Part shown: piece after piece, positions 7,945 to 42,243 of the stretch
Numbering within the stretch: position 1 is the stretch's first letter
How the letters are laid out: each line of letters opens with the position of its first letter
Assembly (NCBI GenBank): GCA_037127795.1
Contig: JBAXXQ010000001.1
Coordinates: 252,274 to 316,273 of the forward strand
Reading direction: 5' to 3'
Source: a bacterium
GTDB taxonomy: Bacteria > Patescibacteriota > Minisyncoccia > Phycocordibacterales > UBA9973
Length of the DNA: 64,000 bases
Program-made: the position numbers and the translations under genes
Notes under the pieces: model-generated
Seen by the model: the letters and a program-made list of their open reading frames with translations, nothing else
What the model was told of the DNA's origin: nothing
Database searches by the model: none

Positions 7945-7983
7945 CATAGAGTATACTGTATGTATCTCTATGCTTTTATTTTT
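7945..7983 (+). terminator. Hairpin terminator after hpf (overlaps the start codon of the next gene)
   Basis: aagcatagag...ctctatgctt hairpin followed by ttattttttg. Confidence 0.35.
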
Positions 7984-10900: not shown

Positions 10901-11044
10901 TGTATCAATAGTACTTGTATCAATGAAGATCAACTCAAACAAATGTTGAACAATACTACTCCGGTACAGCAATCAGTAGTAGATATTTCTATACAAGACC
11001 CTGCTATACCAGCAGTAATACCTGATACGAATTCTACCCAATAA
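7970..11044 (+). CDS. Giant secreted tail-fibre-like protein with C-terminal intramolecular chaperone / auto-processing domain (peptidase S74-like), paralog 1
   Basis: Signal peptide; Gly/Thr/Ser/Asn-rich body; C-terminal SCSSDINLKKNIV...LTPVQYNWK...HTGFIAQQVEQIFPDLV matches the endosialidase/tail-fibre chaperone motif (S-D-x-x-L-K-x-N-I ... GhIAQ-V); conserved CxxxxC-DQLKxML tail. Confidence 0.7.
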   Translation: MLLFFVRHKKTFFALTFVFLFGATVSFANPPVGGYDPGTILDPDCAPGSTDCTVNINNKISAGNGVEFVGQAIQVKLDGASLYKSNTGLKISDGYIGQSSITTVGTIIAGHWHGDVIDIAHGGTGLGATPQNGEFLIGNGTGYDLVNLAGADGVVITNSGSTVTIGLGTSNIPVITSVSGTDYIPIYQTTSPDVRKKITYNDLFSGVLGSLKYQGTWDPGTNTPAIADSDCNSSAKGNFYIVGASGNRHIGSEFSWESGDWLICKGTVWEEVEKTNNIDSVFGRMGSVVAMNGDYTASQITNVPFGSISSITVQNAINELATEKEPVIVPGLANEYWRGDKTWQTLDTSNVSEHPARLYFTNARAVTALTGQNLSIFNNNVGYNSGTGAVGQIPFWNGTNTITGDTGLVWDNTDKQLVIGGGSNFAFSTPSAVTFNIGGNVDTFFQANIQNQSNGANASTDWIATSDNGNELANYVDMGINSSGYNTPSFNITGVNDAYLYSAGNDFAIGNASIGKSLKFFTGGTTTANQRLVIDGTGDVVFTPTSSSATTSSSSLSFNSTYALTAANTAVTTGTVSALVTAQGEVVGSSITNGVFNASGHKLSSAVTWPTVLTPTYFDEYDIAAGAGYSPVIQSISIDTAVTGGSNQLIGDLRYSTDGGNTFTSAGSVKNFPLTSGSYLTFSYTGLSISVPSNTTIIFRVFIYASGVVTSSRSVYMRNMQINGQIGTSTGSVKGVSIAGNYTASASNHVLSALYINGTYNAAGYTGVKNYDLYQANAAASNYFAGVVGIGNLNPTYMLDVGSSSVSGIVGRFTNATGSCTISPTTTSLSCSSDINLKKNIVVLADNTLFTLSTITTAPTATTLDKIMSLTPVQYNWKTEQDTDPKHTGFIAQQVEQIFPDLVLTDPETNLKSVNYMGFAPYLVQAVQEINVTIKNLSSLDTGNINSLGSLIKQFLADSKNNIEDLYAKNIHSSNQICINSTCINEDQLKQMLNNTTPVQQSVVDISIQDPAIPAVIPDTNSTQ

Positions 11045-11049
11045 AACCT

Positions 11050-11274
11050 TTTGTTTTGTAGTCTTTACATAGTATACTTATAGCGTATATGCGCCACTTT
11101 TTTATCACACACAAGAAAACATTCTTCGCAATGTTATTTGTGATACTTTTTAGTACTACTATCTCTTTTGCTGACCGTGCAAACCCCTACACTGCAGGAG
11201 AAACTCTTGATCCAGACTGTGCGCCAGGAAGTGGGGTGAATTGTACGGTACATATTGCTGGTGGAGGAGGAACT
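11050..11274 (+). repeat. Copy A of a ~225 bp identical cassette (promoter + 5' end of gene)
   Basis: Sequence from tttgttttgtagtctttacatag... to ...gctggtggaggaggaact is identical to 14127-14354 except for a 3 nt GGA indel. Confidence 0.85.
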
Positions 11275-14121
11275 CAGACATTGCAAGATGTAACAACTGC
11301 AGGGAATTCTATAACTAATGATATTGGGAATCTTGCTGATAATACATGGAGGATAAATAGTAATGGTGTTGCAAGATTTGGACATCCTATAACTGGTACT
11401 GGAGTAGAGATAGACCCGGATGGAACTATACAATCAGTTGGTGGTAGTTATTCTACGTTTTTTACCGTGTATCCAGGTGGAGGGCAAATTTTAATGGGAG
11501 ATTTTGATGAAACTAGTGGTAAAACAAAATATTTATTAGATGATGTAGCACAAACCCAAACCTTCAATGCTAATAATGGGTTCTTATTTACAGGTGTTAA
11601 TTATCCAGGAGGGTTTGCAAGTATCAACCCAGATACTAATGAAATATTGTTAGGAGAATTCAACACATCAAATGATAATACACATATAGATATATTAAAT
11701 AATTCAGGACATACAGGTAATTATATAAGAACATATTCAAATCATGGGGAATTTAATAATTTAGGTGAAGGGATTAATTTAGATTTTGAACACAACCTAT
11801 TTCAATTAGGTGTATACAGTCAAGAAGGTCTTCAAACCTATATCTCTTTAGATGACAATGCTCAGACTCAATCTTTTAATGCTAGTAATGGGTTTAATTT
11901 TACAGGAAATAATTTTTCTTATGCAAATAGTGGTGGAGAGTATTTAATTAATGCAAACTTTAATAATCGAACTATTGTAATAGGAGATAATCAGCGTATT
12001 GCTGGTAATGGTAATAATTTAACTATTGATGATAATAACAATCTTATTACTTTAGGTAATATATCTTTAAGTGCTTCAATTGAATTAAACACATGGTCAG
12101 GTATAAATACATATTATGCTTATAGGGGGCATAATTTTACAGGAGGTGGTACATTGTCTACTGATGGTGATATAAGTGTAGGAAATAATATTGGAAACAC
12201 TGTTACAGGAGGATGGAGTATAGATAATGCAGGCGCAGCTCATTTTGCAGCAGGGAGCTTCAGTGTAGAAGGTAATGGTAATATTAATAGTGATGGTCAA
12301 TTAAGCCTTGCGGGTGGTAATGCCGGAATATTTAGTGATGGAAGTTTTAGTACTTATAATAACTCACTTGCTGCTAAAACAATAAGTTACAATGGGCATT
12401 TGTTACAAGTAACAGATAGTGTTTATGGTGGTAATTTTTTTAATGTAACAGAGGATGGTACTTTATCAATATCTCAATCTTCAAGTGGCAACAACACATT
12501 ATACATAAATGGTAGTGGTCAGTTCTATATAGCAGATAAGCAGAATGGTTACCAAACATTTAATGTGGGGTATGATTATTCTTATTTTCAAGATAAATAT
12601 TATGGTACTGGTATAGATGCTCAATATGCAAGATTTGAAAAAGATAATATATTCTTTCAAGATGTAACTGGTACACAGAAATATTTTACAGCTGATACTT
12701 TTGGTATACAAACAACTGATCCGATATCTGGAGTTAATGTGTTAGGTCCTAAATGGCTGTTAGGAAGATATAATACTAGTACTCAATCTTTAAATGTTTC
12801 TGTTGATGGTACACAATATAATATTCCTACGCAAACAATTTCGGTAAATGTATCAAATAATTCCGTATACTCTAGTTTATTAGGAAGTTCTAATTTGGCA
12901 TATTCTAATGTTTTAGGAAATAACGCAGGTCTTGGGGCAAGTGGTACATATAATAATTTTTTAGGACCACTTAGTGGCTTTGGAACAAGTGCCTCTTATT
13001 CAAATTTTATTGGAAACGGTGCTGGAGGGTTTGCGACAAATGCATCTCACTCCAACTTTATCGGAGATGGAGCTGGAGCCTTCTCATCATCTTCATCATA
13101 TTCTACCTTTATAGGTTTTCATGCTGGTGCTGATAGTATTTTTAATCCTTTAAATGGACAAAACAATATTATTATTGGTACAAATATAACTCTTCCTCCG
13201 AGTACAAGTAATGCTATTAATATAGGCGGTGTTTTGTTCGGTCTTAATACTCAAAATGATTATAGTGCCAATACTGCTTATTTTACCGCTGTTACCTCTG
13301 GCAAAATAGGTATTGCTAATGCTAATCCGTATTATACCCTCGACGTAGGTAATTCGTCGGTATCAGGAATAGTAGCTCAGTTCACCAACTCATCAGGTAG
13401 TTGTACTATCTCCCCAACAGGTTCAGCAGTTTCTTGTTCTTCCGACATCAACCTCAAGAAAAATATTGTTGCACTCAAGGATAATACACTCTTCACTCTC
13501 AACACTATCACTACAGCACCAACAGCTACCACACTAGACAAACTCATGACACTTACTCCAGTAAGTTACAACTGGAAAACAGAAAACGATACTGATAATA
13601 AACACACTGGATTCATCGCACAACAAGTAGAACAAGTATTCCCAGATCTAGTAACTACAGATCCAACCACTAATCTCAAATCTCTCAACTATATGGGCTT
13701 TGCACCGTATATAGTACAAGCAATACAAGAAATGAATTTCAAGATGACTGCAATCATTCCTGATGATCTTGATGCGACTGCGTATGCAAAAATAAAAAGT
13801 TTCTTGCATCAAGTTGCAACTGATGGAGAAATTACTTTCAATACTTTGAAAACAACACTTATCACTAGTGATGAAATTCGTGCAAATAAAACAACAACCA
13901 ACCAGCTCTGTGTCGGCACCACTTGTATCGATAGTGATCAGCTTGCAAAAATGCTCCAGTCTGCAAATTCACAAAATACAGCGCCAGGTACTCTTGTAGC
14001 AACTCCAGATACTACACAAACTCCAGCAACACCAGACCCTATACTAGCTCCTACTCCTGACCCAGCCCCAAGTACACCTGCTGTCACCGACACTACGACA
14101 CCTACTGTTTCTACACAATAA
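11089..14121 (+). CDS. Giant secreted tail-fibre-like protein with C-terminal S74-like intramolecular chaperone domain, paralog 2
   Basis: Same architecture; first 62 codons and 44 nt upstream identical to paralog 3; Gly/Ala/Asn repeat block; SSDINLKKNIVAL...YNWK...HTGFIAQQVEQVFPDLV; Pro/Thr-rich C-tail. Confidence 0.7.
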   Translation: MRHFFITHKKTFFAMLFVILFSTTISFADRANPYTAGETLDPDCAPGSGVNCTVHIAGGGGTQTLQDVTTAGNSITNDIGNLADNTWRINSNGVARFGHPITGTGVEIDPDGTIQSVGGSYSTFFTVYPGGGQILMGDFDETSGKTKYLLDDVAQTQTFNANNGFLFTGVNYPGGFASINPDTNEILLGEFNTSNDNTHIDILNNSGHTGNYIRTYSNHGEFNNLGEGINLDFEHNLFQLGVYSQEGLQTYISLDDNAQTQSFNASNGFNFTGNNFSYANSGGEYLINANFNNRTIVIGDNQRIAGNGNNLTIDDNNNLITLGNISLSASIELNTWSGINTYYAYRGHNFTGGGTLSTDGDISVGNNIGNTVTGGWSIDNAGAAHFAAGSFSVEGNGNINSDGQLSLAGGNAGIFSDGSFSTYNNSLAAKTISYNGHLLQVTDSVYGGNFFNVTEDGTLSISQSSSGNNTLYINGSGQFYIADKQNGYQTFNVGYDYSYFQDKYYGTGIDAQYARFEKDNIFFQDVTGTQKYFTADTFGIQTTDPISGVNVLGPKWLLGRYNTSTQSLNVSVDGTQYNIPTQTISVNVSNNSVYSSLLGSSNLAYSNVLGNNAGLGASGTYNNFLGPLSGFGTSASYSNFIGNGAGGFATNASHSNFIGDGAGAFSSSSSYSTFIGFHAGADSIFNPLNGQNNIIIGTNITLPPSTSNAINIGGVLFGLNTQNDYSANTAYFTAVTSGKIGIANANPYYTLDVGNSSVSGIVAQFTNSSGSCTISPTGSAVSCSSDINLKKNIVALKDNTLFTLNTITTAPTATTLDKLMTLTPVSYNWKTENDTDNKHTGFIAQQVEQVFPDLVTTDPTTNLKSLNYMGFAPYIVQAIQEMNFKMTAIIPDDLDATAYAKIKSFLHQVATDGEITFNTLKTTLITSDEIRANKTTTNQLCVGTTCIDSDQLAKMLQSANSQNTAPGTLVATPDTTQTPATPDPILAPTPDPAPSTPAVTDTTTPTVSTQ

Positions 14122-14126
14122 AATTG

Positions 14127-14354
14127 TTTGTTTTGTAGTCTTTACATAGTATACTTATAGCGTATATGCGCCACTTTTTTATCACACACAAGAAAACATT
14201 CTTCGCAATGTTATTTGTGATACTTTTTAGTACTACTATCTCTTTTGCTGACCGTGCAAACCCCTACACTGCAGGAGAAACTCTTGATCCAGACTGTGCG
14301 CCAGGAAGTGGGGTGAATTGTACGGTACATATTGCTGGTGGAGGAGGAGGAACT
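14127..14354 (+). repeat. Copy B of the ~225 bp identical cassette
   Basis: Direct comparison with 11050-11274. Confidence 0.85.
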
Positions 14355-17300
14355 AATGGGTGGGATAGTATGTTGGCGCAAAATCAAGTACAGACGCAGG
14401 ATAGAACTATTGATGTTAATAATAAATATTTACGATTTAGTAATATAAATGAAGTTGATTTTTCTGGGGTCTCTGGTCAAAACACTATTGAAATTGTGGA
14501 AGGGCAGGTAAATATGGGAGATATTGGTGGGGTTGGAAATGGTGTTTATTTTTCAGTTGATAGTCCTAATAATAAAATTTATTCATTGGCTGGAGGAAAT
14601 CCAGCTGGATTGAATCTTGATTTTAATAATCAAATATATGAATTGGGTGATTATGGTCACAATAATGATGCTACAACATTATCAGTAGATAATACTCATG
14701 ATATTATTTCTACTTATAGTGGTTCAAATAATTATAAAAATTCAGGTATTTATTTAGATTATGGAAATGCTGATTTTTATTATGGTGATTATGGTCACAA
14801 TCAAAATGGTACAGCAATTTTACTTGATGATCTAGCTCAAACCCAAACCTTCAATGCTAATAATGGGTTTACGTTTAATACTGACAATGGAGGATTTATT
14901 GTATCAGGTAGCAACAGTTACCATTATCAAGATGGGTTATTAGGGGCAATAATATCAGGTAGAATAGCATTTATAGGGGATAATTCTGGCGACTTTAATA
15001 GTACTAGTTTATTGGTTAATGACAATACTGGACAACAATTTATTGATTTTAATGCGCAAAACGGTTTCCAATTCACAGGAGGTTCTATAAGTAGTGATGG
15101 TAATATCTTACTAACAAACGGGGGTACTATATCTGCAAATGCAAATGATTTACAACTAATAAATAATGGTAATTCAAACTATATAAATGTAGGCGCAGGT
15201 GGTAATATAGAGGCACATTCAACAACTGGTGGGACGATAGCATTACAAGATGATTTAAATGGTGCAAAAATATTAATTAACAATTATGCGGGTGATATTG
15301 AATTAACATCTACTTTAGGAGCACCAATAAAAATGTTTGGAGGTAGTGTTCAAACTGATGGTGATATAGAAGGTGGTGGCAAGATAACCACACCTAATTC
15401 AACATTATTTTCAGATGGTTCTGTAGGACTTCCTCATGCTGCTATTAATGTAGACGGGGGTGGTTATTTATCTAATGGTAATTTTAGTTGGGATGCAGGT
15501 GGAAATATAACTACTTATGGTGATTTAAGTTTAATGGGGGGTAATGCGGGGATATTTTCAAATGGACATATATTTTCGGGGGTAGATGGGTTTAATAATT
15601 TTGATGCAACGCAATCTGGTTCACTTACAATTGCTTCAATTAGTGATGGAACAGCAACATTATTTACTGGTGGCGATGGAGATTTTTACATAGCAGATAA
15701 AACAAGTGGTAACCAAACATTCTATGTAGATGTAGCTGGAATGCAAACAACCGATGCAGTAGCGGGGGCGGGAACACTAAGCCCTGCGTGGAAGCTTGGA
15801 AGTTATAATAGCACTTCTGAATCTGTCGCTGTGTCTATTGGGGGTACACTATACAATCTCTCTACGCATGGTGTCGCACTCGATAGTAACAATAGCTTTA
15901 TTGTCGGAGGGGCTGGATCTTTTGGTGCAAATATAAATTCTGTATATGTAGGATTTGCAGCTGGGACTGGTGCAAATGATGCAAACAATTCAAACTTCCT
16001 TGGTGCAAATGCAGGGCTCAATGCGCAATTTGCAAACCATTCAAATTTCTTTGGTGCAGATGCTGGTAATGGTGCAATCAATGCAAGTGTCTCAAACTTC
16101 ATTGGGTACCAGGCGGGGTATGGGGCTGTGAATGCTACGGGCTCAAACTTCTTGGGGCAAGATGCCGGTCATGGTGCAACATATGCAACCAATTCAAACT
16201 TCTTTGGATTCCAGGCTGGATATGGTGCGCTCGGTAGTAATAGCTCTCCATTTAATAGTAACTTCTTTGGGTATCAAGCAGGGTATGGTGATTACAATCT
16301 CACCGACTCAAACTTCTTTGGATACCAAGCAGGATATATTGCAAATACTGCTATAAGTTCAAACTTCTTTGGAAATAGCGCAGGGTATGGAGCAACTAAT
16401 GCTGCGTATGCAAACTTTATGGGGTTTTATGCTGGGTATGGAGCTGGTAATGCAAACGGCTCAAACTTCTTTGGACGCAATGCAGGAGATTCTGCAAGTA
16501 ATGCATCATATTCAAACTTTATTGGATTTGCAGCAGGTAAGTATGCAACAAATGCTCAAATTTCAAACTTTATTGGAATCGGCGCAGGTCTTGATGCAAC
16601 AAATGCAAGTGAGTCAAATTTCTTTGGAGATAATACTGGGCGTGGTGCAACCAATGCTTCAAATGCAATATTTATAGGTGCAAGTGCTGGGTATAATGAT
16701 GCTGTAAATAATGTTTCAACTGGAGGGTTTTCAATTCTTATAGGGCCACATACAAATACTGGTGGCTATTCAAACAGTATTGCAATAGGTGGCTCTGCTA
16801 CCAATACCGCAACAAATCAATTTATGATCGGCTCAACTTCATTCCCAATCAATACTACTGTCATCAAAGGTGCAAGTACACAATGTACTATCACCACAGG
16901 TACAGGTATTGCATGTTCGTCTGATGCAAGTCTCAAGAAAAATATTGTAGCCGTACAAGATGGTACGCTTGCAAAAGTACTTGCACTCCGCCCGGTAACA
17001 TACAACTGGAATGATGAACAAGATACTGATCCGACACATATAGGATTCATTGCGCAAGAAGTAGAAACAGTATTCCCACAAGTAGTATCTATAGACCCTG
17101 CAACACATCTCAGACTGCTCTCTACGACCTCACTTATTCCTTATACTATCAAAGCTATACAAGAGATGCATATTACTATTACGTCTGTAATTCCAGATAC
17201 TCTTGATAGTACTGCGTATGGCAAAATAAAAGAATTTTTGCGAGAAATTGCTACAGAAGGGAAGGCTGTAGTAGATATTGTACAAACACATACACTCTGT

Positions 17301-17528
17301 GTAGACGATGTGTGTGTCACCCGTGATCAGTTCAAAAACATGGTCCAGCAAGCAGGTCAGCAACAAAGTGCTCCGAGTGTTGTTGTGCCTGTAGCACCTA
17401 GTACAACACCAGTAACCACTCCAACACCAGTTTCATCAGACGCTACTGTAGTAGACCCAGTTGTTACCCCAACACCAAGTCCTGTGGTAGATACTACTCC
17501 TGCTCCTGCATCTTCTGAAAATCAGTAA
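14166..17528 (+). CDS. Giant secreted tail-fibre-like protein with long SNFxG-xAG-GA-NA repeat array and C-terminal S74-like chaperone domain, paralog 3
   Basis: Identical N-terminus to paralog 2; ~17 tandem 14-16 aa Gly/Ala/Asn repeats; CSSDASLKKNIVAV...YNWN...HIGFIAQEVETVFPQV; Pro/Thr/Val-rich tail. Confidence 0.7.
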   Translation: MRHFFITHKKTFFAMLFVILFSTTISFADRANPYTAGETLDPDCAPGSGVNCTVHIAGGGGGTNGWDSMLAQNQVQTQDRTIDVNNKYLRFSNINEVDFSGVSGQNTIEIVEGQVNMGDIGGVGNGVYFSVDSPNNKIYSLAGGNPAGLNLDFNNQIYELGDYGHNNDATTLSVDNTHDIISTYSGSNNYKNSGIYLDYGNADFYYGDYGHNQNGTAILLDDLAQTQTFNANNGFTFNTDNGGFIVSGSNSYHYQDGLLGAIISGRIAFIGDNSGDFNSTSLLVNDNTGQQFIDFNAQNGFQFTGGSISSDGNILLTNGGTISANANDLQLINNGNSNYINVGAGGNIEAHSTTGGTIALQDDLNGAKILINNYAGDIELTSTLGAPIKMFGGSVQTDGDIEGGGKITTPNSTLFSDGSVGLPHAAINVDGGGYLSNGNFSWDAGGNITTYGDLSLMGGNAGIFSNGHIFSGVDGFNNFDATQSGSLTIASISDGTATLFTGGDGDFYIADKTSGNQTFYVDVAGMQTTDAVAGAGTLSPAWKLGSYNSTSESVAVSIGGTLYNLSTHGVALDSNNSFIVGGAGSFGANINSVYVGFAAGTGANDANNSNFLGANAGLNAQFANHSNFFGADAGNGAINASVSNFIGYQAGYGAVNATGSNFLGQDAGHGATYATNSNFFGFQAGYGALGSNSSPFNSNFFGYQAGYGDYNLTDSNFFGYQAGYIANTAISSNFFGNSAGYGATNAAYANFMGFYAGYGAGNANGSNFFGRNAGDSASNASYSNFIGFAAGKYATNAQISNFIGIGAGLDATNASESNFFGDNTGRGATNASNAIFIGASAGYNDAVNNVSTGGFSILIGPHTNTGGYSNSIAIGGSATNTATNQFMIGSTSFPINTTVIKGASTQCTITTGTGIACSSDASLKKNIVAVQDGTLAKVLALRPVTYNWNDEQDTDPTHIGFIAQEVETVFPQVVSIDPATHLRLLSTTSLIPYTIKAIQEMHITITSVIPDTLDSTAYGKIKEFLREIATEGKAVVDIVQTHTLCVDDVCVTRDQFKNMVQQAGQQQSAPSVVVPVAPSTTPVTTPTPVSSDATVVDPVVTPTPSPVVDTTPAPASSENQ

Positions 17529-26638: not shown

Positions 26639-27163
26639 ATGTTTATGGATCCTAAGATTACACTTTCTGGAATGAATTTTCAGGTGACAGATACTGTTGC
26701 AGATTTTGGTGCTGGAAGTGGATTTCTTGCATTTACTCTCGCACAAATGATACCGAGTGGTCATGTGTTTGCTATTGAAATAAATAAAGACATGGTGACG
26801 CGTATTGCAAAAGAAGCAGAGGATAAAAATATTACCAACATACATCCACTCTGGGGAGATATAGAAATTTTGGGAGGAAGTGGACTCGCTGATGCGGCAG
26901 TAGATACTGTCGTACTATCCAATGTATTGTTTCAGCTCGAAGATAAAAAAGGAGTATTTGCAGAAGTAAAACGAGTACTCAAACCAGGTGGGCGAGTACT
27001 TCTTATAGATTGGTCTGATTCTTTTTCTGGGCTTGGTCCAGCACCGCATCATGTGTTTACCAAAGATCAGGCTATGGCACTTTTAGGTGAGTTTGGGTTT
27101 ATTATAAAAAATGACAATCTTCCGGTCGGAGATCATCATTATGCTATACTAAGTAGTATATAA
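26639..27163 (+). CDS. Class I SAM-dependent methyltransferase (small)
   Basis: Motif I VADFGAGSGFLA; post-I acidic residue; LKPGGRVLLIDW motif. Confidence 0.6.
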   Translation: MFMDPKITLSGMNFQVTDTVADFGAGSGFLAFTLAQMIPSGHVFAIEINKDMVTRIAKEAEDKNITNIHPLWGDIEILGGSGLADAAVDTVVLSNVLFQLEDKKGVFAEVKRVLKPGGRVLLIDWSDSFSGLGPAPHHVFTKDQAMALLGEFGFIIKNDNLPVGDHHYAILSSI

Positions 27164-27164
27164 T

Positions 27165-28466
27165 ATGACAAGTTTTAAAAACATTTTACTTGGACTCTTT
27201 ATTGTACTTTTTGTCGGCGCTATTTTGGTATTTTCTGGGGTGATAAATATTGGTGGGACGACACAACAAAAAGTGCAAACAAATTTATCCCTTTGGGGAC
27301 CGTTTCCTTCAATTGCTATGCAGGGTATTATTACTGATTTTAATAATATTGATACGTATACACAAATTAGTTATACCCAAGTCTTACCAAATGATTTGCA
27401 TAGGCAGCTCGTCGAAGCTATCGCTTCAGGGAAAGGACCTGATATGGTCATTTTTTCAAACGAAAATTTCTTACAAGATATTGATAAGTTATATGTAACA
27501 CCTTTTGCTACATATCCTGAGAGAACATTTCGTGATACGTATATAGATGGAGCTAGTACGTTTTTAAATAATGATGGTGTTGTTTTGTATCCGCTCGTTG
27601 TTGATCCTTTGGTTGTGTATTACAACAAAGATCTTCTTGCTGCTGCAAAATATATCTATCCTCCTCGTACATGGTCTGGGCTCAATCAAAGCGTGCCACT
27701 ATTTTTGAAAAAAGATAAAACAGGTATTACGCAAAGTGCTATTGCATTGGGTGAATCTCCTAATATGGAGCATTTCAAGAAAATATTTTCTACTCTGTTA
27801 TTACAATCAGGGGTTCCTGTTGTTTCTTATAATACTGATGCAAAGAGGTATTTAGTAAAACTTAATACTGAGCGATCTGACCCAAATAAAGCGACACCAC
27901 AAGAACAAGCATTTTTGTACTATCAATCATTTGCTGATCCGACAAGTCAGCTCTACAGTTGGAATAAAAAACTTCCAGAAGCACAAGACGCGTTTCTTTC
28001 TGGAAAGAGTGCCTTTTATCTTGCTCCCGCTAGTGAATTGTTTGAAATTCAAACAAAAAATCCAAATCTTAATTTTGATACGACGGCAATGTTTCAACCA
28101 GACAATGCGGTAAGACCTATTACATACGGTACTATTTATGGTGTAGGTATTCTCAAAAATAGTTCAAATCTTGCTGTTGCGTACAATGTACTCGGTTCTC
28201 TTTTGGGAAAAGATATTGTCGATACTATATCAAAACAGGTATCACTTCCTCCGGCACGTCGTGACCTTTTACAGGTACAACCAGCAAATCCATATGCTGC
28301 AGTATTTTTTAATCAAGCACTACAAACATTTACATGGCCTGATCCTGATAAAAATGGTACTGATACTGCCTTTCGTGATATGATAAGACAAGCAGCTTCA
28401 GGGGAAAGAGATATTAATCAAGCATTATATGAAACACAAAATCAAATTCAATCTTATATTCAGTAG
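27165..28466 (+). CDS. Extracellular solute-binding protein (ABC family 1, MalE-like), membrane-anchored, orphan
   Basis: N-terminal TM anchor; PLVVDPLVVYYNKDLL...PPRTWSGL matches the SBP family-1 signature; no adjacent permease or ATPase. Confidence 0.5.
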   Translation: MTSFKNILLGLFIVLFVGAILVFSGVINIGGTTQQKVQTNLSLWGPFPSIAMQGIITDFNNIDTYTQISYTQVLPNDLHRQLVEAIASGKGPDMVIFSNENFLQDIDKLYVTPFATYPERTFRDTYIDGASTFLNNDGVVLYPLVVDPLVVYYNKDLLAAAKYIYPPRTWSGLNQSVPLFLKKDKTGITQSAIALGESPNMEHFKKIFSTLLLQSGVPVVSYNTDAKRYLVKLNTERSDPNKATPQEQAFLYYQSFADPTSQLYSWNKKLPEAQDAFLSGKSAFYLAPASELFEIQTKNPNLNFDTTAMFQPDNAVRPITYGTIYGVGILKNSSNLAVAYNVLGSLLGKDIVDTISKQVSLPPARRDLLQVQPANPYAAVFFNQALQTFTWPDPDKNGTDTAFRDMIRQAASGERDINQALYETQNQIQSYIQ

Positions 28467-28824
28467 TTTATTTTTATTCATAACAGCTATACCAGCTTTT
28501 GCAAAAGGTCCAGCAGGAAGTGTTATAGGTATTCCTTGTGATGGAGTAAATTGTAACATTGAGGATATTTTTACCTTGATTAATAATCTCATAAAATTTG
28601 CTATTACAAAATTATTTTTCCCAATTTTTATTGTAGCTATTTTGTACATTGGATGGAGTTATCTTACCGCTGGTGGAGATACCAAGAAGGTTGCTAATGT
28701 AAAACAAATGGCTTGGCATATGTTTTTAGGGGTAATCCTTGTTCTTGCATCATGGCTTATTGTTAAAACAGTACTCGATGTACTAGGGGCAACAGATGCG
28801 GGGATGTTTTTGACAGGTAATTAA
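28429..28824 (+). CDS. VirB2/TrbC-like pilin-type protein 1 (signal peptide + two-helix hairpin)
   Basis: Sec signal (AIPAFA/KG), then two long hydrophobic helices separated by a TAGGDTKK loop; overlaps the SBP gene by 38 nt. Confidence 0.5.
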   Translation: MKHKIKFNLIFSSLFLFITAIPAFAKGPAGSVIGIPCDGVNCNIEDIFTLINNLIKFAITKLFFPIFIVAILYIGWSYLTAGGDTKKVANVKQMAWHMFLGVILVLASWLIVKTVLDVLGATDAGMFLTGN

Positions 28825-28840
28825 TGTATACTTATATTAT

Positions 28841-29323
28841 ATGCAATATAAAAATCTTAAAAAAATATTCGCTGTAGGTATATTTTTGGGAATAATGTTT
28901 TTTTCAAATTTGTTAGTATTTGCTCAAGGTAACCCTGGTGCAAATAGTACTGGGACACCAACAAATAATCCTGGTGCAAATGCTACAGCAAATCAAACAA
29001 CTCCATCTGCTACGGCAAATAATACTGTTATTCCGCCAGGAGATACAAAGATAAGTTATAGTATTAATAACCCGCTTGGAGTTACTAGTATTGATGAGGT
29101 TATACAAAAAATAATGGCTGTTATAGTTAAACTCGCAGTTCCTGTAATTATCTGCCTCTTTTTATATACAGGATTTATGTTTATTACAGCACAGGGAGAT
29201 ACCACAAAATTAAAAACAGCAAAAACTATGCTTTGGCAAGTAATTGTAGGAACTATTATTATCCTTGGTGCATGGGCTATAGCAGCTGCTATTGTTACAA
29301 CAGTAAGCTTAATAACAGGATAA
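28841..29323 (+). CDS. VirB2/TrbC-like pilin-type protein 2 with Asn/Thr/Pro-rich spacer
   Basis: Signal (LLVFA/QG); low-complexity NPGANSTGTPTNNPGANATANQTT linker; helix-AQGDTTK-helix C-terminal hairpin. Confidence 0.5.
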   Translation: MQYKNLKKIFAVGIFLGIMFFSNLLVFAQGNPGANSTGTPTNNPGANATANQTTPSATANNTVIPPGDTKISYSINNPLGVTSIDEVIQKIMAVIVKLAVPVIICLFLYTGFMFITAQGDTTKLKTAKTMLWQVIVGTIIILGAWAIAAAIVTTVSLITG

Positions 29324-29324
29324 T

Positions 29325-30476
29325 ATGAAAAGATTTTTATTCTCACTCATACTAATAGTAAGTATATCAATCCCGGCATTTGCCTTTGCTGGAGAGATAA
29401 CAGCACAAAGTCAGTGTAAAAATTTATCTAGCATTTCAACAAGTGCTCAATATACTATTTGCTGTACGAGTACTTTTAAGGCCGCTATTTGTAGTAGTCT
29501 TACCACAAGTCAACAATGCACTTTAGGAGTACTTCCTGCGGATCAATGTCAGAATCAGTGTGATTCTATAAAATCAAAAAATGACTATGATGTATGTTGT
29601 AATCTTTCTGATCATCCTATTTGTAAGTCACTTTCAGTACCAGAACAATGTGCATACGGAGCGCCTATTAATCCATCGCTCTGTGTGTCTACGCAACAGC
29701 AAGTGACCCAGAATCAACCTCAAACATACACTCCTGGTGCGACTTATACATCAGGGCAATGTGATGCATTTTCTAGTATTGATTCTTTGGATAAGTACAA
29801 TAGTTGTTGTGTTGATTTAAAAACAAATACTCCTCATTCTCCTCAACCTACAAGTTGTCTTACAATGACAAAAAATCAACAATGTGCTCTGGGGGTACTT
29901 CCTGCTGATCAGTGCCAGAATCAATGTAGTTCTATTACCTCTAGGGATGATTATACGACTTGTTGTGCAGGTGCTGTTGTTGCCAACTCATGTGTTGCAT
30001 TATCACAAGCAGATATATGTTTGTTCAAAACTTTTAATTCTACTATTGAGGCAACAAATGCGGGCTGTCCGGATGCAAATATTGCCGGGTTTGTTTCTCC
30101 TGGTTCTGGGGTTGGGGGAAGTCTTTTAGGGGGTGATCCTTTGGGAACATATAGTAAAAATGTTGTCGTAGAAACAACCTGTTCAAAAGTAAATCTTTCA
30201 AAAGTTGACTTGAAAAGTTTTTGGAGTTTCTTTTTGTGGGTTCGATGTTTTATAGGAAGTCTATTTCCATTATTGATGACAATTGCGTTCCTTGTCTTTA
30301 TGTGGAATATTGTCAACTACATAATTAAACCTAATGCATTAAAGAATAATGAGCGCCGTACATATATAATCGCGGGATTAATAGGGTTATTTGTTATTGT
30401 TGGTATGTGGGGCTTGGTTGCATTCACAACATCAACCCTTGGAATAGGAAGTGTTATACCACAGCTGCCATTGTAG
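29325..30476 (+). CDS. Cys-rich secreted modular protein with C-terminal VirB2-like two-helix membrane hairpin
   Basis: Signal (AFAFA/GE); two ~110 aa tandem Cys-rich modules (QQC.LGVLPADQCQNQC.SI.S..DY..CC repeated); C-terminal FFLWVRCFIG...AFTTSTLGIG hairpin. Confidence 0.5.
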   Translation: MKRFLFSLILIVSISIPAFAFAGEITAQSQCKNLSSISTSAQYTICCTSTFKAAICSSLTTSQQCTLGVLPADQCQNQCDSIKSKNDYDVCCNLSDHPICKSLSVPEQCAYGAPINPSLCVSTQQQVTQNQPQTYTPGATYTSGQCDAFSSIDSLDKYNSCCVDLKTNTPHSPQPTSCLTMTKNQQCALGVLPADQCQNQCSSITSRDDYTTCCAGAVVANSCVALSQADICLFKTFNSTIEATNAGCPDANIAGFVSPGSGVGGSLLGGDPLGTYSKNVVVETTCSKVNLSKVDLKSFWSFFLWVRCFIGSLFPLLMTIAFLVFMWNIVNYIIKPNALKNNERRTYIIAGLIGLFVIVGMWGLVAFTTSTLGIGSVIPQLPL

Positions 30477-30545
30477 ATTTGATATATAGGTGTGGTATAC
30501 TATAAGGGTACTAAATAATTAAAAGATAGTAATTAATTGTAATTT

Positions 30546-30926
30546 ATGAAAAAATTTTTGATAGCATTAAGTGCAGTACTTGTTCCTGCAAGTTTGTACG
30601 CACAATCACCAAGTCATTTGAATAATCTTATAGATGAAATTTTTAACCTTGCAAATAAGGCTGTTGCGTTTTTGATGATATTGGCAACATTGTATTTTAT
30701 CTGGGTTATTATAAAACTTATTACACAAACAGATTCTGCAAAAAGAAAAGAAAACAAAGAGCAAGTAAAATGGGCAGTTATTGGTCTTGCTATTATGGTC
30801 TGTGTATGGGGTCTTATCCGTTTTGCTGCTGATACTCTTGGTATTAGTACAACTAATGGAAACCAAAATAATATTGCAATCCCTTGTCCACCAGGTACAA
30901 ACCCTGTTGGAGGTGGTTGTCGTTAA
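30546..30926 (+). CDS. VirB2/TrbC-like pilin-type protein 4
   Basis: Signal (SLYA/QS); two hydrophobic helices separated by a TQTDSAKRKENKEQ loop; Gly/Cys C-tail. Confidence 0.5.
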   Translation: MKKFLIALSAVLVPASLYAQSPSHLNNLIDEIFNLANKAVAFLMILATLYFIWVIIKLITQTDSAKRKENKEQVKWAVIGLAIMVCVWGLIRFAADTLGISTTNGNQNNIAIPCPPGTNPVGGGCR

Positions 30927-30940
30927 GCTACTACAATACT

Positions 30941-31315
30941 ATGTTGTCTGAATTTATTGCATTTGCACAGGTATCACACGATCAGACATTAGAAGGTGTT
31001 TTATCTCGTATTAATTATTATATTATCAATCCCGCAATTATGTTGCTTTTTACGATAGCGACAGTGGTATTTATTTGGGGGATTATAAAATATATTAGAA
31101 ATGCTGCAGATCCAAAAAAGCGTAAAGAAGGACAAGATCATATGTTGTGGGGGATTATAGGATTTACTATTATGGTAGGAGTATACGGGATTATTACTAT
31201 AATTACTCAATTTTTTGGGTTCTCAAATGTAACTGTAACTCCAACAAAAATAAAAGTAACTCCTCAAAATATCCCATCGGTAAAAATTAAATCTTTTAAT
31301 TTACCTACTAAATAA
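30941..31315 (+). CDS. VirB2/TrbC-like pilin-type protein 5
   Basis: Start chosen at ATG 30941 (track ORF 30884 overlaps the previous gene); two helices around RNAADPKKRKEGQD. Confidence 0.45.
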   Translation: MLSEFIAFAQVSHDQTLEGVLSRINYYIINPAIMLLFTIATVVFIWGIIKYIRNAADPKKRKEGQDHMLWGIIGFTIMVGVYGIITIITQFFGFSNVTVTPTKIKVTPQNIPSVKIKSFNLPTK

Positions 31316-31334
31316 AAACTACCTACAAATAAGA

Positions 31335-31368
31335 AAAGCCTTCCTGAAATCAGGAAGGCTTTTTTTTT
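31335..31368. terminator. Bidirectional rho-independent terminator
   Basis: aagccttcctga-aa-tcaggaaggctt followed by TTTTTTTTT. Confidence 0.6.
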
Positions 31369-31388
31369 GTGGAATAAGGAACATAACA

Positions 31389-31997
31389 TTACTTTGGATC
31401 TGATATTTCTACGTGTAATTTTTTTACAGGAGTAATTGTGTGTATAACAATAACGCACAATCTCGGAAAGGTTGTATTTGTTTGTTCGATAGTTGTATTG
31501 TTTTTTACACGATAGTAAAAAAGTTTTTTTGCATCTCGTGCAAAAACTTCAAACTCACCTGATTCAGAAATTGTTTCAAATCGCTTCATGTCTGGAGCGG
31601 TAAACTTAATCGTTTCATCAGATTTCAAATCCATTTCTTTTCCAAAAGTAACTCTCGGTGTACACATTTCTTTGAAAGTGTATTTAATCTTTTCTGGCCA
31701 TACAAAATCAGGTGGATTCCACGAAATTAGTATGATACAGAATAAAATTATTCCAATGAGCCACCAAATCCAGGAAGGAAATGAACTTGGTTTTTTAAAG
31801 TTTTTTACTAAAAAGTAAATACCAGTAAAAAACCCAACAATGCCCACCATATATAACATCCAAACCCCCATGAATAACCAGAAAATCAGGATAATGATTG
31901 CGAATATCAATAAAGCAGCAAGTGTGTAAAATAAAAATAATTTTTTACTACTCTTGTGGGCTTTACGAGTCCCGTATTGATTACTACTGTTGTCCAT
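31389..31997 (-). CDS. Membrane protein with C-terminal beta-rich domain (possible NfeD-like partner of the upstream SPFH-like protein)
   Basis: Two or three TM helices then a soluble C-terminal domain; start taken at MDNSS (31997) to limit overlap. Confidence 0.4.
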   Translation of the reverse strand: MDNSSNQYGTRKAHKSSKKLFLFYTLAALLIFAIIILIFWLFMGVWMLYMVGIVGFFTGIYFLVKNFKKPSSFPSWIWWLIGIILFCIILISWNPPDFVWPEKIKYTFKEMCTPRVTFGKEMDLKSDETIKFTAPDMKRFETISESGEFEVFARDAKKLFYYRVKNNTTIEQTNTTFPRLCVIVIHTITPVKKLHVEISDPK

Positions 31998-32988
31998 TAT
32001 TACCTCCTCTTTTTTTTGTACCAGTTTCTTCATCATCTTTTCCAAGTAGAATCGATTCTAGTGTTGATAGAGTACCACCTCCTTGATTAAAATACTTAAG
32101 TCCTTGCGGAAGGCCTTTGTTCGATGCTTCTGCTACTTTTGCAAGATTTTCAGATGTTTTGTTAATAAAATCTGCATGAGCTTTATATTTTTTCTCAATA
32201 AATTTCATGTTTACCTCATTCATTGCATCTTGTCCTTTGGCTTTAAGTTCTTCTGTTTTAAGGATGTGTTCTTGTGCTTTAGTATTGTTTTCTTCTATAC
32301 CAATATTTTCTTCTGCATTTAAAAAATCTTGCGATTCTTCAGCTACAAAGATATATGGTATAGCAGGGAAGCCTAAAATTTTGAATTGATTAGAGGTAAA
32401 AAAGTCAGAATTATTAAGCTTGGTGATATCTTTATCTATCTCACTTAATATATCTGTACCTGCTACTTGTCTAATTTCTTTAAACTTTTTTTTGCTTGCC
32501 CACTCACGAACAACACTAATCACTTGGTTATGGATCTGCCCCAATGGATCTTCGAGACCTTTTGCTTTTATTGGGTTTCCTATCTCTACTGAGATTTGAA
32601 GTACCAATTCCAGACTTGCTGCATCTTCAGATATTACTTCCGCAACATCAAGATGTGATTCATTTTTCATAATATCTACCCATTCCTCTCTTGTCCCAAT
32701 TACTAATTTAGATTTTAAGAATTGTCTTAGGTTGATATATTTTTTTCTCTCCACACCATTTATGGTGATCATTTCAGTTGCCGCAGATTCTACATCTGCA
32801 ACTTCTTCTTTCCAGCGAAGTTTAACCTTGCTTGTTCCATAAGGCCAAACAATAAGAGGGAAATTGGCATCGGTAATACCGCTAGGGTCGCTTGGGTCAT
32901 TTATGATCCAGTCAACGTCTTTGCCAAATTTTGTCATGATGGTATATACTCCAGTCTTTTCTGGTACCAATTGGATAAATTTTGTCAT
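31984..32988 (-). CDS. SPFH/band-7 (flotillin)-like protein, TM-less (tentative)
   Basis: N-terminal beta-rich region (LIVWPYGTSKVKLRWKEE...ITINGVERKKYINLRQ) then a long Lys/Glu/Ala coiled-coil tail, as in flotillin-like proteins. Confidence 0.35.
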   Translation of the reverse strand: MTKFIQLVPEKTGVYTIMTKFGKDVDWIINDPSDPSGITDANFPLIVWPYGTSKVKLRWKEEVADVESAATEMITINGVERKKYINLRQFLKSKLVIGTREEWVDIMKNESHLDVAEVISEDAASLELVLQISVEIGNPIKAKGLEDPLGQIHNQVISVVREWASKKKFKEIRQVAGTDILSEIDKDITKLNNSDFFTSNQFKILGFPAIPYIFVAEESQDFLNAEENIGIEENNTKAQEHILKTEELKAKGQDAMNEVNMKFIEKKYKAHADFINKTSENLAKVAEASNKGLPQGLKYFNQGGGTLSTLESILLGKDDEETGTKKRGGNNGQQ

Positions 32989-33115: not shown

Positions 33116-34186
33116 ATGTTAGAACGATTTGAAAAGGCGCTACATTCGCAAGAAAACCCAACGAATGAAAAAGGGTATGAGCCTAGCTTAAAAGAAGTTT
33201 TGAAGAAAAAAGAAGACTCTGATTTATTTGGTGAATTACTCAAAAGAGAAGGTAAGATAAATCTTGCTACCCGACTGGCAAAAGGTGAACTTACTGAATC
33301 TGATATCGAAGAACTCGATGAATATCGGACTGACTTTATGGGATCTATGGATCGAGTTAAAACAGTAAAAGAATCTATATCAAAAGAGCTTATTCATGCA
33401 TATACAAGACATAATTCAGACCTACAGAAAGTAATTTCTTTGGTGGGGGTAGATGAATATGAATCAATAGTAAAAGATAAATTGGCACGTCTTTCTATTA
33501 CAGCACCAGATGATTTTGAGGCTTTGTATAGATCTGTTGAAAGTAAGAATGATTACAAAGACGGGTATTATAAAAACTTAGATGAGCGAGTTGTTGCTCT
33601 CTGTAAAGAAAAAAAGATTAATCCAGAAGAATACTTCAAGGCTATCCTTGTTGAAGATCCTGATGAAAGAGAAGAAGCATTGCGAACTGTTGTACGTAAG
33701 GGGTATTCTTGGTTTGGAAAAGCAACAGATTGGCTTTCTAAGGGGGCGTACTCTAGAGATGATAGAGATACACTAACTGATACTTCAAGGTATATCTTTA
33801 GTGCGAACGATGATATGCGGGATGCTCAGGGTGAAGTCGGATATTTTCTCGCAGCTCTTACTTCAAATGAGGTTATTCGAAATGCTGTTTCAAAAGAGAT
33901 AATTGGAGATCCTGCAAATAAAGAAGTTTTTGAAGGTTTTAGTACTATAAAAAATGAACAACCTACAAAAGAAAAGGTTCAATTAGATTGGAATTCTTAC
34001 AAAGCTCAAGTAAAAGATTGGGCAGATCTTACTCCTGACGATCAGGATATGCACCGAGAGTCATTTCTGGATACTCAAAAAGAATTGTATGAGAAACAGC
34101 AAAGTAAAAAAACTAGTTTCTGGTCTTCAATTTTTGGAAGTTTCTTTGATCTCTTTGCTACTATTAATAAAGATAGTCTTAAATAA
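33116..34186 (+). CDS. Hypothetical highly charged alpha-helical protein (356 aa)
   Basis: ORF track; no recognisable motif; hydrophobic C-terminal tail. Confidence 0.45.
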   Translation: MLERFEKALHSQENPTNEKGYEPSLKEVLKKKEDSDLFGELLKREGKINLATRLAKGELTESDIEELDEYRTDFMGSMDRVKTVKESISKELIHAYTRHNSDLQKVISLVGVDEYESIVKDKLARLSITAPDDFEALYRSVESKNDYKDGYYKNLDERVVALCKEKKINPEEYFKAILVEDPDEREEALRTVVRKGYSWFGKATDWLSKGAYSRDDRDTLTDTSRYIFSANDDMRDAQGEVGYFLAALTSNEVIRNAVSKEIIGDPANKEVFEGFSTIKNEQPTKEKVQLDWNSYKAQVKDWADLTPDDQDMHRESFLDTQKELYEKQQSKKTSFWSSIFGSFFDLFATINKDSLK

Positions 34187-34446: not shown

Positions 34447-34522
34447 TGGTGCGCCTAGCAGGACTTGAACCTGCGACATTCTCCTTAAGAGGGAGCTGCT
34501 CTACCAACTGAGCTATAGGCGC
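34447..34522 (-). tRNA. tRNA-Lys (anticodon CTT), CCA encoded
   Basis: Reverse complement GCGCCTATAGCTCAGTTGGTAGAGC...CTCTTAA...GGTTCAAGTCCTGCTAGGCGCACCA folds into a cloverleaf. Confidence 0.8.
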
Positions 34523-34623
34523 ATATTTATTTTGTAAAAGTATTTTTCTATAGTATCACTTTGCGAACGGAGCCGCTACAACTGAACTATGGGTGCGTAT
34601 ATGCATTTTATAAAAATGCCGTG

Positions 34624-34705
34624 TGCCGAGGAGAGGACTTGAACCTCCATACCTCGCGGTGCTTGCTCCTAAGGCAAGTGCGTCTACCAATTTCGCCACC
34701 TCGGC
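34624..34705 (-). tRNA. tRNA-Leu (anticodon TAG), long variable arm, no encoded CCA
   Basis: Reverse complement GCCGAGGTGGCGAAATTGGTAGACGC...CTTAGGA...GGTTCAAGTCCTCTCCTCGGCA. Confidence 0.8.
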
Positions 34706-34740
34706 ATGAATCATACTATATACTATCTTTGTAGGTTTTT

Positions 34741-34900
34741 CAACAAAACAATTTATTTGGGACTCGGTCACGAGTTACTAATTCGCCTTGCTCATAAGTA
34801 CTCGCGACCCCGCCTCAGCGCTGTATCGCCTCCCAGGCGCGCGCTTCCGGCTTTCTCGTCTGCACTCAAGGCAATCATAAAAAATACTCAAAAGAGTGTT
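34741..34900 (-). ncRNA. Candidate structured RNA (GC-rich island within the tRNA operon); identity unknown
   Basis: Local GC is much higher than the surrounding spacers; complementary segments ggtcacgagt...actcgcgacc, GCGCGC palindrome, CCGGAAGC; no ORF; co-oriented between two tRNA-Leu genes. Confidence 0.2.
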
Positions 34901-34911
34901 TTTTATGATTG

Positions 34912-34994
34912 TGCCCGAGGCGGGACTCGAACCCGCACGACATCACTGTCTGAGGATTTTAAGTCCTCTATGTCTACCATTCCATCACTCGGGC
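34912..34994 (-). tRNA. tRNA-Leu (anticodon TAA), long variable arm
   Basis: Reverse complement GCCCGAGTGATGGAATGGTAGACATAGAGGACTTAAAATCCTC...GCGGGTTCGAGTCCCGCCTCGGGCA. Confidence 0.8.
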
Positions 34995-35016
34995 AAAGAA
35001 CACGCAAAATGCGTTG

Positions 35017-35088
35017 AGGTCCGGGCGAGAATCGAACTCGCGTATAGTTCTTTTGCAGAGAACCGCCTTACCACTTGGCCACCGGACC
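35017..35088 (-). tRNA. tRNA-Cys (anticodon GCA)
   Basis: Reverse complement GGTCCGGTGGCCAAGTGGTAAGGCGGTTCTCTGCAAAAGAAC...GCGAGTTCGATTCTCGCCCGGACCU; discriminator U. Confidence 0.8.
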
Positions 35089-42148: not shown

Positions 42149-42231
42149 GCGTCGGTGGTAGAGTGGTCAATTACAACAGACTGTAAATCTGTCGCCTTCG
42201 GGCTACGAAGGTTCAAATCCTTCCCGGCGCA
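42149..42231 (+). tRNA. tRNA-Tyr (anticodon GTA), long variable arm
   Basis: GCGTCGGTGGTAGAGTGGTCAATTACAACAGACTGTAAATCTGTCGCCTTCGGGCTACGAAGGTTCAAATCCTTCCCGGCGCA; G-U pair in acceptor stem. Confidence 0.8.
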
Positions 42232-42243
42232 CAAAATACAAAA

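Follow-up and report, generated by a model that had tools for sequence, protein, structure and literature searches.

A gene module of one solute-binding protein and five predicted VirB2/TrbC-like pilins in a Patescibacteriota chromosome

Introduction

Arrays of pilin genes belonging to a type IV secretion system (T4SS) are, together with other T4SS genes, widespread in Patescibacteria (PMC12102498). This report describes such an array in a 64,000 bp stretch of a Patescibacteriota genome (GenBank assembly GCA_037127795.1, contig JBAXXQ010000001.1, positions 252,274 to 316,273), referred to here as the window. The array consists of five consecutive open reading frames (ORFs) from the ORF list of the window, all on the plus strand at 28429-31315 and named g1 to g5. 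A gene encoding a solute-binding protein (SBP) precedes them. Arrays of genes of the family PF18895 (T4SS_pilin) have already been published from Patescibacteria (PMC10633639, PMC12102498), so the pilin array is of a known kind. The SBP-coupled, gyrA-linked form, an operon of fixed gene order encoded at a distance from virB4, appears not to have been described before. The preferred reading, with a probability of about 0.6, is that the SBP and five hairpin pilins are co-transcribed and that a T4SS encoded elsewhere assembles them into a heteromeric filament or conduit.

Southlakia epibionticum ML1 carries six PF18895 genes, SEML1_0014-0019, in a T4SS cluster. They adjoin genes for VirB6-like, PrgI and VirB4 proteins and all were essential by transposon sequencing (PMC10633639). 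Like the window array, this is a PF18895 array that is chromosomal and not mobile, with five or six divergent proteins in tandem that have a signal peptide and a hairpin. The S. epibionticum array lies within the T4SS cluster near the replication origin and has no SBP, whereas the window array adjoins gyrA, is coupled to an SBP and has no T4SS gene less than 10 kb away. Two more differences are that one window protein is Cys-rich and 383 aa long and that the final one lacks a signal peptide. The T4SS and pilin series of Patescibacteria are essential in the only species tested and the cargo is not known (PMC10633639, PMC11665869, PMC12857230). Uptake from the host is one speculation on T4SS function offered in reviews.

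A 2025 survey counted 441 VirB2 arrays across 383 assemblies; each had 2-11 genes, and the mean paralog identity was 25% (PMC12102498). The arrays were found mainly in Microgenomatia and Saccharimonadia, and a solute-binding protein was not mentioned. The survey was centered on the neighborhood of virB4 and its Fig. S9 scores arrays as 'near virB4'. Pilin genes were near virB4 in 1135 of 1948 assemblies and far from it in about 40% (PMC12102498). The window array shares with these arrays the tandem PF18895/PF04956 genes and the low paralog identity. The survey suggested that the paralogy represents host-range versatility (PMC12102498); in contrast, the paralogs of the window are position-specific orthologs. 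An array was defined there as at least two genes matching a pilin hidden Markov model (HMM), in tandem or one non-pilin gene apart, with an i-Evalue below 0.001 and more than 50% HMM coverage (PMC12102498). By this definition g1, g2, g4 and g5 form a VirB2 array, in which g3 (E 0.13) would be an intervening gene. No virB4 was found within 20 coding sequences of the array; the scanned ORFs of the window and of the 9.5 kb to its right extend past 20 genes in either direction.

Other comparisons are more distant. The VirB2, TrbC and TraA pilins of diderm bacteria are also small, with a cleaved leader and two helices joined by a basic loop, and they form a membrane pool before assembly. They differ in that one major pilin is used, whereas the host of the window array is monoderm and has several obligatory paralogs. 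VirB5, VirB7, VirB9 and VirB10 do not accompany the window array and its genes score under the gathering score of PF04956. The pilin-like protein Mbov_0395 of Mycoplasma integrative and conjugative elements (ICEs) is encoded by a single gene on a mobile element. Judged by locus-tag number only, it would lie two genes from the ICE VirB4 homolog Mbov_0397 (NF045975). The window instead has five chromosomal paralogs with an SBP, and no relaxase or integrase. Several tandem VirB2-family genes are attributed to Bartonella and Anaplasma in work cited in PMC12102498. Those copies are thought to serve antigenic or host-range variation, whereas the window paralogs are conserved in order and identity.

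Coupling of the Solute-Binding Protein to the Pilins

The SBP gene (27165-28466, plus strand, 433 aa) is the first gene of the module. Its product is of the SBP_bac_1 or MalE type (PF01547, 66.9 bits; PF13416, 64.3 bits) and has distant similarity to MalE in the PDB. The N-terminus is a hydrophobic signal or anchor with no lipobox. The original prediction had described this gene as an orphan that is overlapped by the first array gene. The overlap was confirmed, as g1 starts inside the end of the SBP gene, 38 nt before the end of the SBP stop codon. The orphan status was not supported by the comparison with related loci.

Metagenome contigs were scanned with the SBP alone. This gave 80 loci with SBPs of 31-48% identity, and the ORFs of these loci were then searched with an HMM of the pilin core. 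Fifty-three loci had at least 2.5 kb of sequence downstream of the SBP and were eligible for counting. Pilin ORFs on the same strand followed the SBP in all 53. At least five were present in 50 of the 53 (five in 26 loci, six in 13, seven in nine and eight in two). The first pilin overlapped the SBP stop or began at most 60 nt from it in 50 of the 53 loci. The SBP is the constant first gene of the pilin operon. The HMM was specific, with 388 of its 405 matches among 4043 searched ORFs located inside arrays. The 17 other matches were on fragment contigs of the same arrays or were ORFs beside an SBP gene.

A search for related loci using close g4 homologs as the query returned five genome loci. 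Three homologs of the SBP (44-45% identity), examined blind, had an identical layout of gyrA, methyltransferase, SBP, five genes at the pilin positions, two convergent genes and IF-2. PF18895 was on record for four or five of the five genes at the pilin positions in these three. In a metagenome-assembled genome of Uhrbacteria (locus L017), five PF18895 genes came after a distant SBP (27% identity), with polysaccharide-synthesis genes around them. Because the flanks differ in Uhrbacteria, the coupling of SBP and pilins is not mere conserved synteny. No paper linking an SBP to these pilins was found in the literature searched.

The SBP family included 1046 word-indexed homologs of a uniform length of about 435 aa, with names that include Nomurabacteria, Paceibacterota and Patescibacteria. 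Among 1.84e9 representative proteins there were 799 clusters at 50% identity with E ≤ 1e-30 and only 2464 matches at E ≤ 1e-3. On this distribution of matches, the family is a Patescibacteria-specific lineage of SBP_bac_1, large but divergent. Aromatic and acidic residues are invariant within it. The window SBP shares its fold family, extracytoplasmic location and conserved aromatic and acidic positions with the SBPs of ATP-binding cassette (ABC) importers of the MalE or UgpB type. Unlike these, it has no permease or ATPase partner near it. An SBP-dependent ABC importer was tested for by its components: the SBP_bac_1 domain was present, and the permease (BPD_transp) and ATPase were not found near the window SBP or among the conserved or large neighbors of about 90 related loci. 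A small subunit of a tripartite ATP-independent periplasmic (TRAP) or tripartite tricarboxylate (TTT) transporter was also considered for the hairpin proteins and rejected. Matches to DctQ and TctB were under their gathering scores and looked compositional, the SBP is ABC-type and there was no large permease.

Gene Order and Orthology of the Array

Two relatives had a 1:1 ortholog for every array gene in the same order. In the comparison with one related locus (L005) identity was 93% for GyrA, 89% for IF-2, 71% for the methyltransferase and 60% for the SBP. The pilins were 60% (g1), 54% (g2), 32% (g3), 50% (g4) and 59% (g5) identical. Position within the array was examined in 61 arrays. The top five BLAST hits at other loci came from the same position in 97% of cases for the first gene, 94% for the second, 89% for the penultimate and 97% for the last. 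The last gene had two hydrophobic segments, and so no signal peptide, in 57 of the 61 arrays. Three hydrophobic segments were present in the first gene in 60 arrays and in the penultimate gene in 58. The additional genes of arrays with six to eight members belonged to the middle class only.

By these comparisons the array is an old, fixed-order set and not a variable cassette bank. Comparative synteny had been proposed as a check on the array, and it returned the same gene order across relatives. The accompanying suggestion of an exchangeable family of paralogs did not hold, since each position has its own orthologs. That both the order and the identity of the paralogs are conserved speaks for a heteromeric structure.

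A bank of pilins that can be interchanged or that vary antigenically, swapped for different hosts, would be in keeping with paralogs that are only 35-40% identical, with the fast-evolving and length-variable external segments of g2 and g3, and with the host-range versatility suggested in the 2025 survey (PMC12102498). It is nonetheless improbable. Every position has its own ortholog, and the order is the same even in loci with SBPs of just 31-48% identity. Recent duplications, pseudogene cassettes and recombination repeats were all absent. The genes form one tightly packed operon and would be co-expressed, and extra copies in the larger arrays are confined to the middle class.

Family Assignment of the Pilins

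PF18895 was the top Pfam match for all five proteins. The gathering score of 26.6 was passed by g1 (27.3 bits, E 4e-6), g4 (44.6 bits, E 1.5e-11) and g5 (34.9 bits, E 1.6e-8). The scores of g2 (23.0 bits, E 8.6e-5) and g3 (12.8 bits, E 0.13) were under it. NF045849, the Mbov_0395 family of pilin-like conjugal transfer proteins from Mycoplasma ICEs, matched g4 at 41.7 bits and g5 at 40.4 bits, both marginally above the equivalog cutoff of 40, and g2 at 23.9 bits. As the context is not an ICE, this is taken as homology and not equivalence. The best match to TrbC/VirB2 (PF04956) in the window was g1 at 23.3 bits, under the gathering score of 27.9. A member of the same array family in Uhrbacteria (L017:10001-10336) passed that score with 28.7 bits.

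The array paralogs are only 35-40% identical to each other overall. BLASTP linked g1 to g2 (36% identity, E 6e-12), g4 to g5 (40% identity, E 2e-14) and the C-terminus of g3 to both g4 and g5 (about 35% identity, E about 1e-10). These links divide the paralogs into two subgroups, {g1, g2} and {g3, g4, g5}. They also tie g2 and g3 to the pilin family. Among 71 sampled array proteins of related loci, all matched PF18895, 56 matched NF045849 and 15 matched TrbC/VirB2 PF04956 at E ≤ 0.01, the best with an E of 8e-10.

On these profile matches g1-g5 very probably belong to the T4SS-type (VirB2/TrbC-like) pilin family. The original prediction had placed them with VirB2/TrbC and not with type IV (PilA) pilins. 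The profile matches agree with it, with PF18895 passed by three of the five and NF045849 by g4 and g5. There was no match to the type IV pilin family PF07963 in g1-g5, and their leaders are class I (A-x-A) with two C-terminal helices. A profile of the pilin alignment gave no match to PDB sequences. The matches of g4, g5 and 56 of the 71 related proteins to NF045849 link the pilin family to the conjugation systems of monoderms (MPF-FATA). Because most of the pilins match the Mycoplasma ICE protein, the pilin-like component may be native to these monoderm systems and not borrowed from diderms.

Short hydrophobic sequences give many weak and non-specific Pfam matches, and the five proteins could in principle be unrelated small membrane proteins (holins, bacteriocin-immunity proteins or other hairpins) that look like pilins by hydrophobic composition. 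This is highly improbable given that PF18895 and NF045849 matches exceed curated cutoffs, that all 71 related array proteins match PF18895, and that the custom HMM found nothing outside arrays, array fragments and SBP-adjacent ORFs. The loci also lack a phage or toxin context. A holin, bacteriocin or chance origin was ruled out by the HMM specificity together with the 71 PF18895 matches. An unrelated holin-like family had been named beforehand as one outcome that would overturn the pilin assignment, and it was not what was found.

Architecture and Topology of the Pilins

Leaders and helices were called from Kyte-Doolittle hydrophobicity and an A-x-A heuristic, and are predictions. Signal peptides were predicted in g1-g4, ending in PAFA|K, VFA|Q, AFA|G and LYA|Q, respectively. 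All five proteins have two C-terminal hydrophobic helices of about 20-30 residues each with a short charged loop between them. The two-helix hairpins and the charged loops had been listed before and were present in every member. A cleavable Sec signal had also been assigned to the whole array; g1-g4 have A-x-A leaders and g5 has none.

The first pilin, g1 (28429-28824, plus strand, 131 aa), has a predicted signal peptide at residues 1-25 (AFA|K), a conserved CDGVNC pair and the hairpin loop TAGGDTKK. Its orthologs are 60-89% identical and retain the 38-nt SBP overlap. The 160-aa g2 (28841-29323, plus strand) has a predicted signal peptide at residues 1-28, a low-complexity external segment rich in N, T and P, and the hairpin loop AQGDTTKLK.

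The largest member, g3 (29325-30476, plus strand, 383 aa), has a predicted signal peptide at residues 1-22, a Cys-rich external domain of about 270 aa and the pilin hairpin at 299-371. The ectodomain (window positions 29325-30200) contains internal repeats with the spacing QC...S....Y..CC.......C.......QC..G. Only three homologs of g3 were found among 5.8e9 proteins, and all Cys residues were invariant in them. Orthologs of g3 range from 273 to 602 aa (455 aa with 32% identity in L005; 602 aa in L015). An AlphaFold2 (AF2) model built from four sequences had low confidence, with a predicted local distance difference test (pLDDT) score of 54. The ectodomain has the look of a surface domain that is rich in disulfides and restricted to one lineage. 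The external segments of g2 and g3 both evolve rapidly and change in length.

The g4 protein (30546-30926, plus strand, 126 aa) has a predicted signal peptide at residues 1-19 (LYA|Q), the hairpin loop TQTDSAKRK and a C-terminal tail with a CP.G...C pair, of which C114 and C125 were invariant in 11 sequences. Its AF2 model (pLDDT 72) is a hairpin with helices at 22-60 and 64-98. The last pilin, g5 (30941-31315, plus strand, 124 aa), retains a nine-residue remnant (MLSEFIAFA|Q) with no h-region, and has the hairpin loop RNAADPKKRK and a basic C-terminal tail. Orthologs of g5 are 59-76% identical.

Conserved Cys pairs (g1, g3, g4) are confined to the N- and C-terminal segments outside the hairpin. 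Among 342 array proteins no Cys was located in the inter-helix loop, and Cys counts in the terminal segments were even in 111 cases and odd in 43. The mean charge in the same set was +0.3 for the loop and -0.5 and -0.3 for the flanks. Since the Cys pairs are only terminal and the loops are more positive, the termini would be outside and the loop cytoplasmic. The data fit a hairpin with N-out/C-out topology and a cytoplasmic loop. VirB2 and TraA pilins in the membrane also have both termini outside and the loop in the cytoplasm. Once conjugative pili are assembled, their termini point outward and the loop borders the lumen; on this basis the large, fast-evolving domain of g3 would sit on the exterior of any filament.

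T4SS Machinery and Assessment of the Reading

The only T4SS-like component reported in the original prediction was a VirD4-like ATPase 28 kb from the array. It was confirmed as a VirD4/TrwB-like gene at 59395-61281 on the plus strand (PF10412, 45.8 bits). The Walker A motif is near residue 40, there are no N-terminal transmembrane helices and the protein ends in an apparently disordered Pro-rich tail of about 200 aa. Judged by these predicted features, the protein is not a canonical membrane-anchored coupling protein. The gene sits among the uvrC and uvrA repair genes. Three nt after it is a gene (61285-62601, plus strand) encoding a protein with a lamin-tail domain (LTD) and PKD. According to a published survey, VirD4-type genes are numerous in Patescibacteria and mostly unlinked to virB4.

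Several results count against assembly of the pilins by a T4SS. VirB4, VirB6, TrsD and PrgI were not found among the scanned ORFs of the window or in 9.5 kb to its right, and VirB8 likewise had no match among them. The original prediction had noted that VirB4, VirB6 and VirB8 genes were not adjacent to the array, and their absence extends over this larger region. None of VirB4, VirB6, TrsD and PrgI was located in the 7-10 kb around any of the roughly 90 related loci. As there are no T4SS genes nearby, family membership is the only argument for T4SS dependence, and two members, g2 and g3, are under the PF18895 gathering score. A fold search was uninformative, because over 1000 unrelated PDB chains match a hairpin of two helices. 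We know of no T4SS that employs an SBP. According to reviews, no pilus of the PF18895 family has been imaged in any organism.

The same absence bears on a second explanation, in which the SBP and five hairpins (10 transmembrane helices) form a T4SS-independent membrane complex acting as a channel, uptake device or envelope scaffold. Its subunits would share only ancestry with T4SS pilins and would have a fixed stoichiometry. The invariant coupling to the SBP with overlapping stop and start codons would suit such a complex, as would the fixed, position-specific composition with one subunit lacking a signal peptide. The module is never beside T4SS genes, the SBP has no ABC permease, and the invariant aromatic and acidic residues of the SBP family are expected of a true ligand binder. 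Against this, PF18895 genes occur inside the bona fide essential T4SS cluster of S. epibionticum, there without an SBP, and the family is similar to TrbC/VirB2 and to the Mycoplasma ICE transfer proteins. The operon has no energizing ATPase, a transporter of this type would be without precedent, and the DctQ/TctB matches are weak, sub-threshold and compositional-looking. We consider a T4SS-independent complex possible, though unlikely.

Under the preferred reading, assembly by a T4SS into a heteromeric filament or conduit, g1-g4 would be exported by Sec and cut after A-x-A, and g5 would insert without a leader. All five would sit in the membrane as N-out/C-out hairpins with the basic loop in the cytoplasm. 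An MPF-FATA-like T4SS (VirB4, TrsD, PrgI, VirB6), encoded elsewhere and in this phylum typically near dnaA, would extract the subunits and polymerize them into a filament or conduit on the cell surface, heteromeric and defined in composition. The bulk subunits would be g4 and g5, as they are short, have the best family matches and have a putative promoter of their own. The variable and disulfide-rich external segments of g1-g3 would face outward and contact the host. The SBP would be an extracytoplasmic ligand-binding accessory that captures a host-derived sugar-like solute or docks to a glycan. The module would serve the epibiotic lifestyle by attachment, uptake or both. Across a large clade, the pilins are hard-wired to an SBP in the core genome beside gyrA, which argues for a defined heteromer with ligand capture or glycan docking rather than for DNA conjugation or antigenic variation.

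A more specific proposal is that the SBP-pilin operon is an import device that takes sugar-like or other small molecules from the host surface, through either a T4SS-type conduit or a T4SS-free channel. This is a tentative idea and we regard it as doubtful. If true, conjugation-type pilins would here be used in a binding-protein-dependent way for the first time, and the purpose of the essential Patescibacteria T4SS would have a concrete answer. Patescibacteria account for a large part of bacterial diversity, and their way of life is attachment to other microbes. Ligand binding is the testable clue that the locus gives to what T4SS-type pilins do in this group.

Operon Structure and Regulatory Signals

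The intergenic distances from the SBP to g5 are -38 (SBP-g1), 16 (g1-g2), 1 (g2-g3), 69 (g3-g4) and 14 nt (g4-g5). An intrinsic terminator was predicted at 31334-31372, with a 13-bp G+C-containing hairpin followed by a T9 run on the plus strand; use on the minus strand is also possible. This predicted terminator at 31334-31372 closes the operon. The operon may begin at the methyltransferase gene (26639-27163) and end at the terminator at 31334.

The five array proteins are identical to NCBI MEI6022510-MEI6022514 (locus tags WCQ32_01550-01570), encoded on a contig of 580,599 bp, where g4 is named 'pilin'. The five consecutive ORFs reported originally are real, and only the start of g5 was revised. 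The mechanical ORF of g5 opens at TTG 30884, whereas gene callers choose ATG 30941, which gives the 124-aa protein. The ATG start was chosen by gene callers on four independent contigs and in the NCBI record, and in the L005 ortholog of g5 an upstream extension is impossible.

In 53 of 61 arrays the widest internal gap is the one ahead of the penultimate gene. In the window this is the 69-nt gap between g3 and g4 (30477-30545), with an extended -10-like sequence, TGGTATACT, at 30493-30501. Boxes resembling GGTATA(C/A)T recur in the largest gaps of related arrays, for example L032:10156-10277 and L031:9731-9861. The gap is a candidate location for an internal promoter and leader of g4-g5. A scan of the locus for sigma-70 promoters gave fewer matches than shuffled controls and is uninformative. 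In the clade of the window the -10-like box is often followed by an ACCTG...CAGGT hairpin, as judged by eye.

More distant loci had other signals. Of 58 leaders, 20 carried the pentamer GGTCG at 30-57 nt upstream of the start codon, compared to 1.2 expected. A TATCC(A/C)CA box was also present, and its core pentamers TCCAC and CCACA each occurred in 14 of the 58 leaders compared to about 1.4 expected. RNAalifold gave no consensus structure for the GGTCG leaders. A fixed-register helix in these leaders had 51.7% paired cells compared to 43% in shuffled sequences; 11 of 500 shuffles were as high and slid controls were not clearly beaten.

Neighboring Genes and Other Features

The window is ordinary chromosome with about 37% G+C. 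It encodes gyrA, IF-2, ClpB, UvrABC, GltX and tRNAs. The methyltransferase gene (26639-27163, plus strand) encodes a 174-aa class I S-adenosylmethionine-dependent enzyme (Pfam methyltransferase families) and lies 1 nt upstream of the SBP gene. The same family is directly upstream in 71 related loci and is missing from the module in Uhrbacteria. It is a conserved neighbor that may be co-transcribed with the SBP.

Two genes on the minus strand are convergent to the array, at 31389-32045 (218 aa) and 31984-32988 (334 aa). By itself the 334-aa protein had no Pfam match. A profile built from 31 homologs at the same position matched stomatin, HflK, prohibitin and flotillin in the PDB, the best being PH stomatin (E 5.6e-18), and Band_7 was present in 12 of the 31. 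These stomatin-group and Band_7 matches identify it as a divergent member of the SPFH proteins. Its 218-aa partner spans the membrane several times and matches NfeD_membrane weakly (E 0.1). In 30 of the 49 eligible loci, a convergent gene of this SPFH family was located at most 3 kb from the last pilin; it may act as a scaffold for the pilins or be a syntenic neighbor.

Four tRNA genes (Lys-CTT, Leu-TAG, Leu-TAA and Cys-GCA) are clustered at 34447-35088 on the minus strand, between the gene at 33116-34186 and IF-2. A tRNA-Tyr gene follows ClpB at 42149-42232 on the plus strand. Three tandem genes at 7970-17528 (plus strand) encode proteins of about 1000-1120 aa, each with Peptidase_S74 at its C-terminus, the domain that serves endosialidase or tail spikes as an intramolecular chaperone. 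The product of 14166-17528 is named 'tail fiber domain-containing protein' by NCBI. The trio lies between the S30AE and formyltransferase genes, which are adjacent to each other in the relatives L019 and L021, and for this reason it is taken as a lineage-specific insertion of putative surface fibers. Large serine recombinase genes (Resolvase, Recombinase, Zn_ribbon_recom) were present downstream of the array in two related loci, at L029:11055-12842 and L035:5131-6672, both on the minus strand. This suggests that mobile DNA is occasionally inserted at the site downstream of the array.

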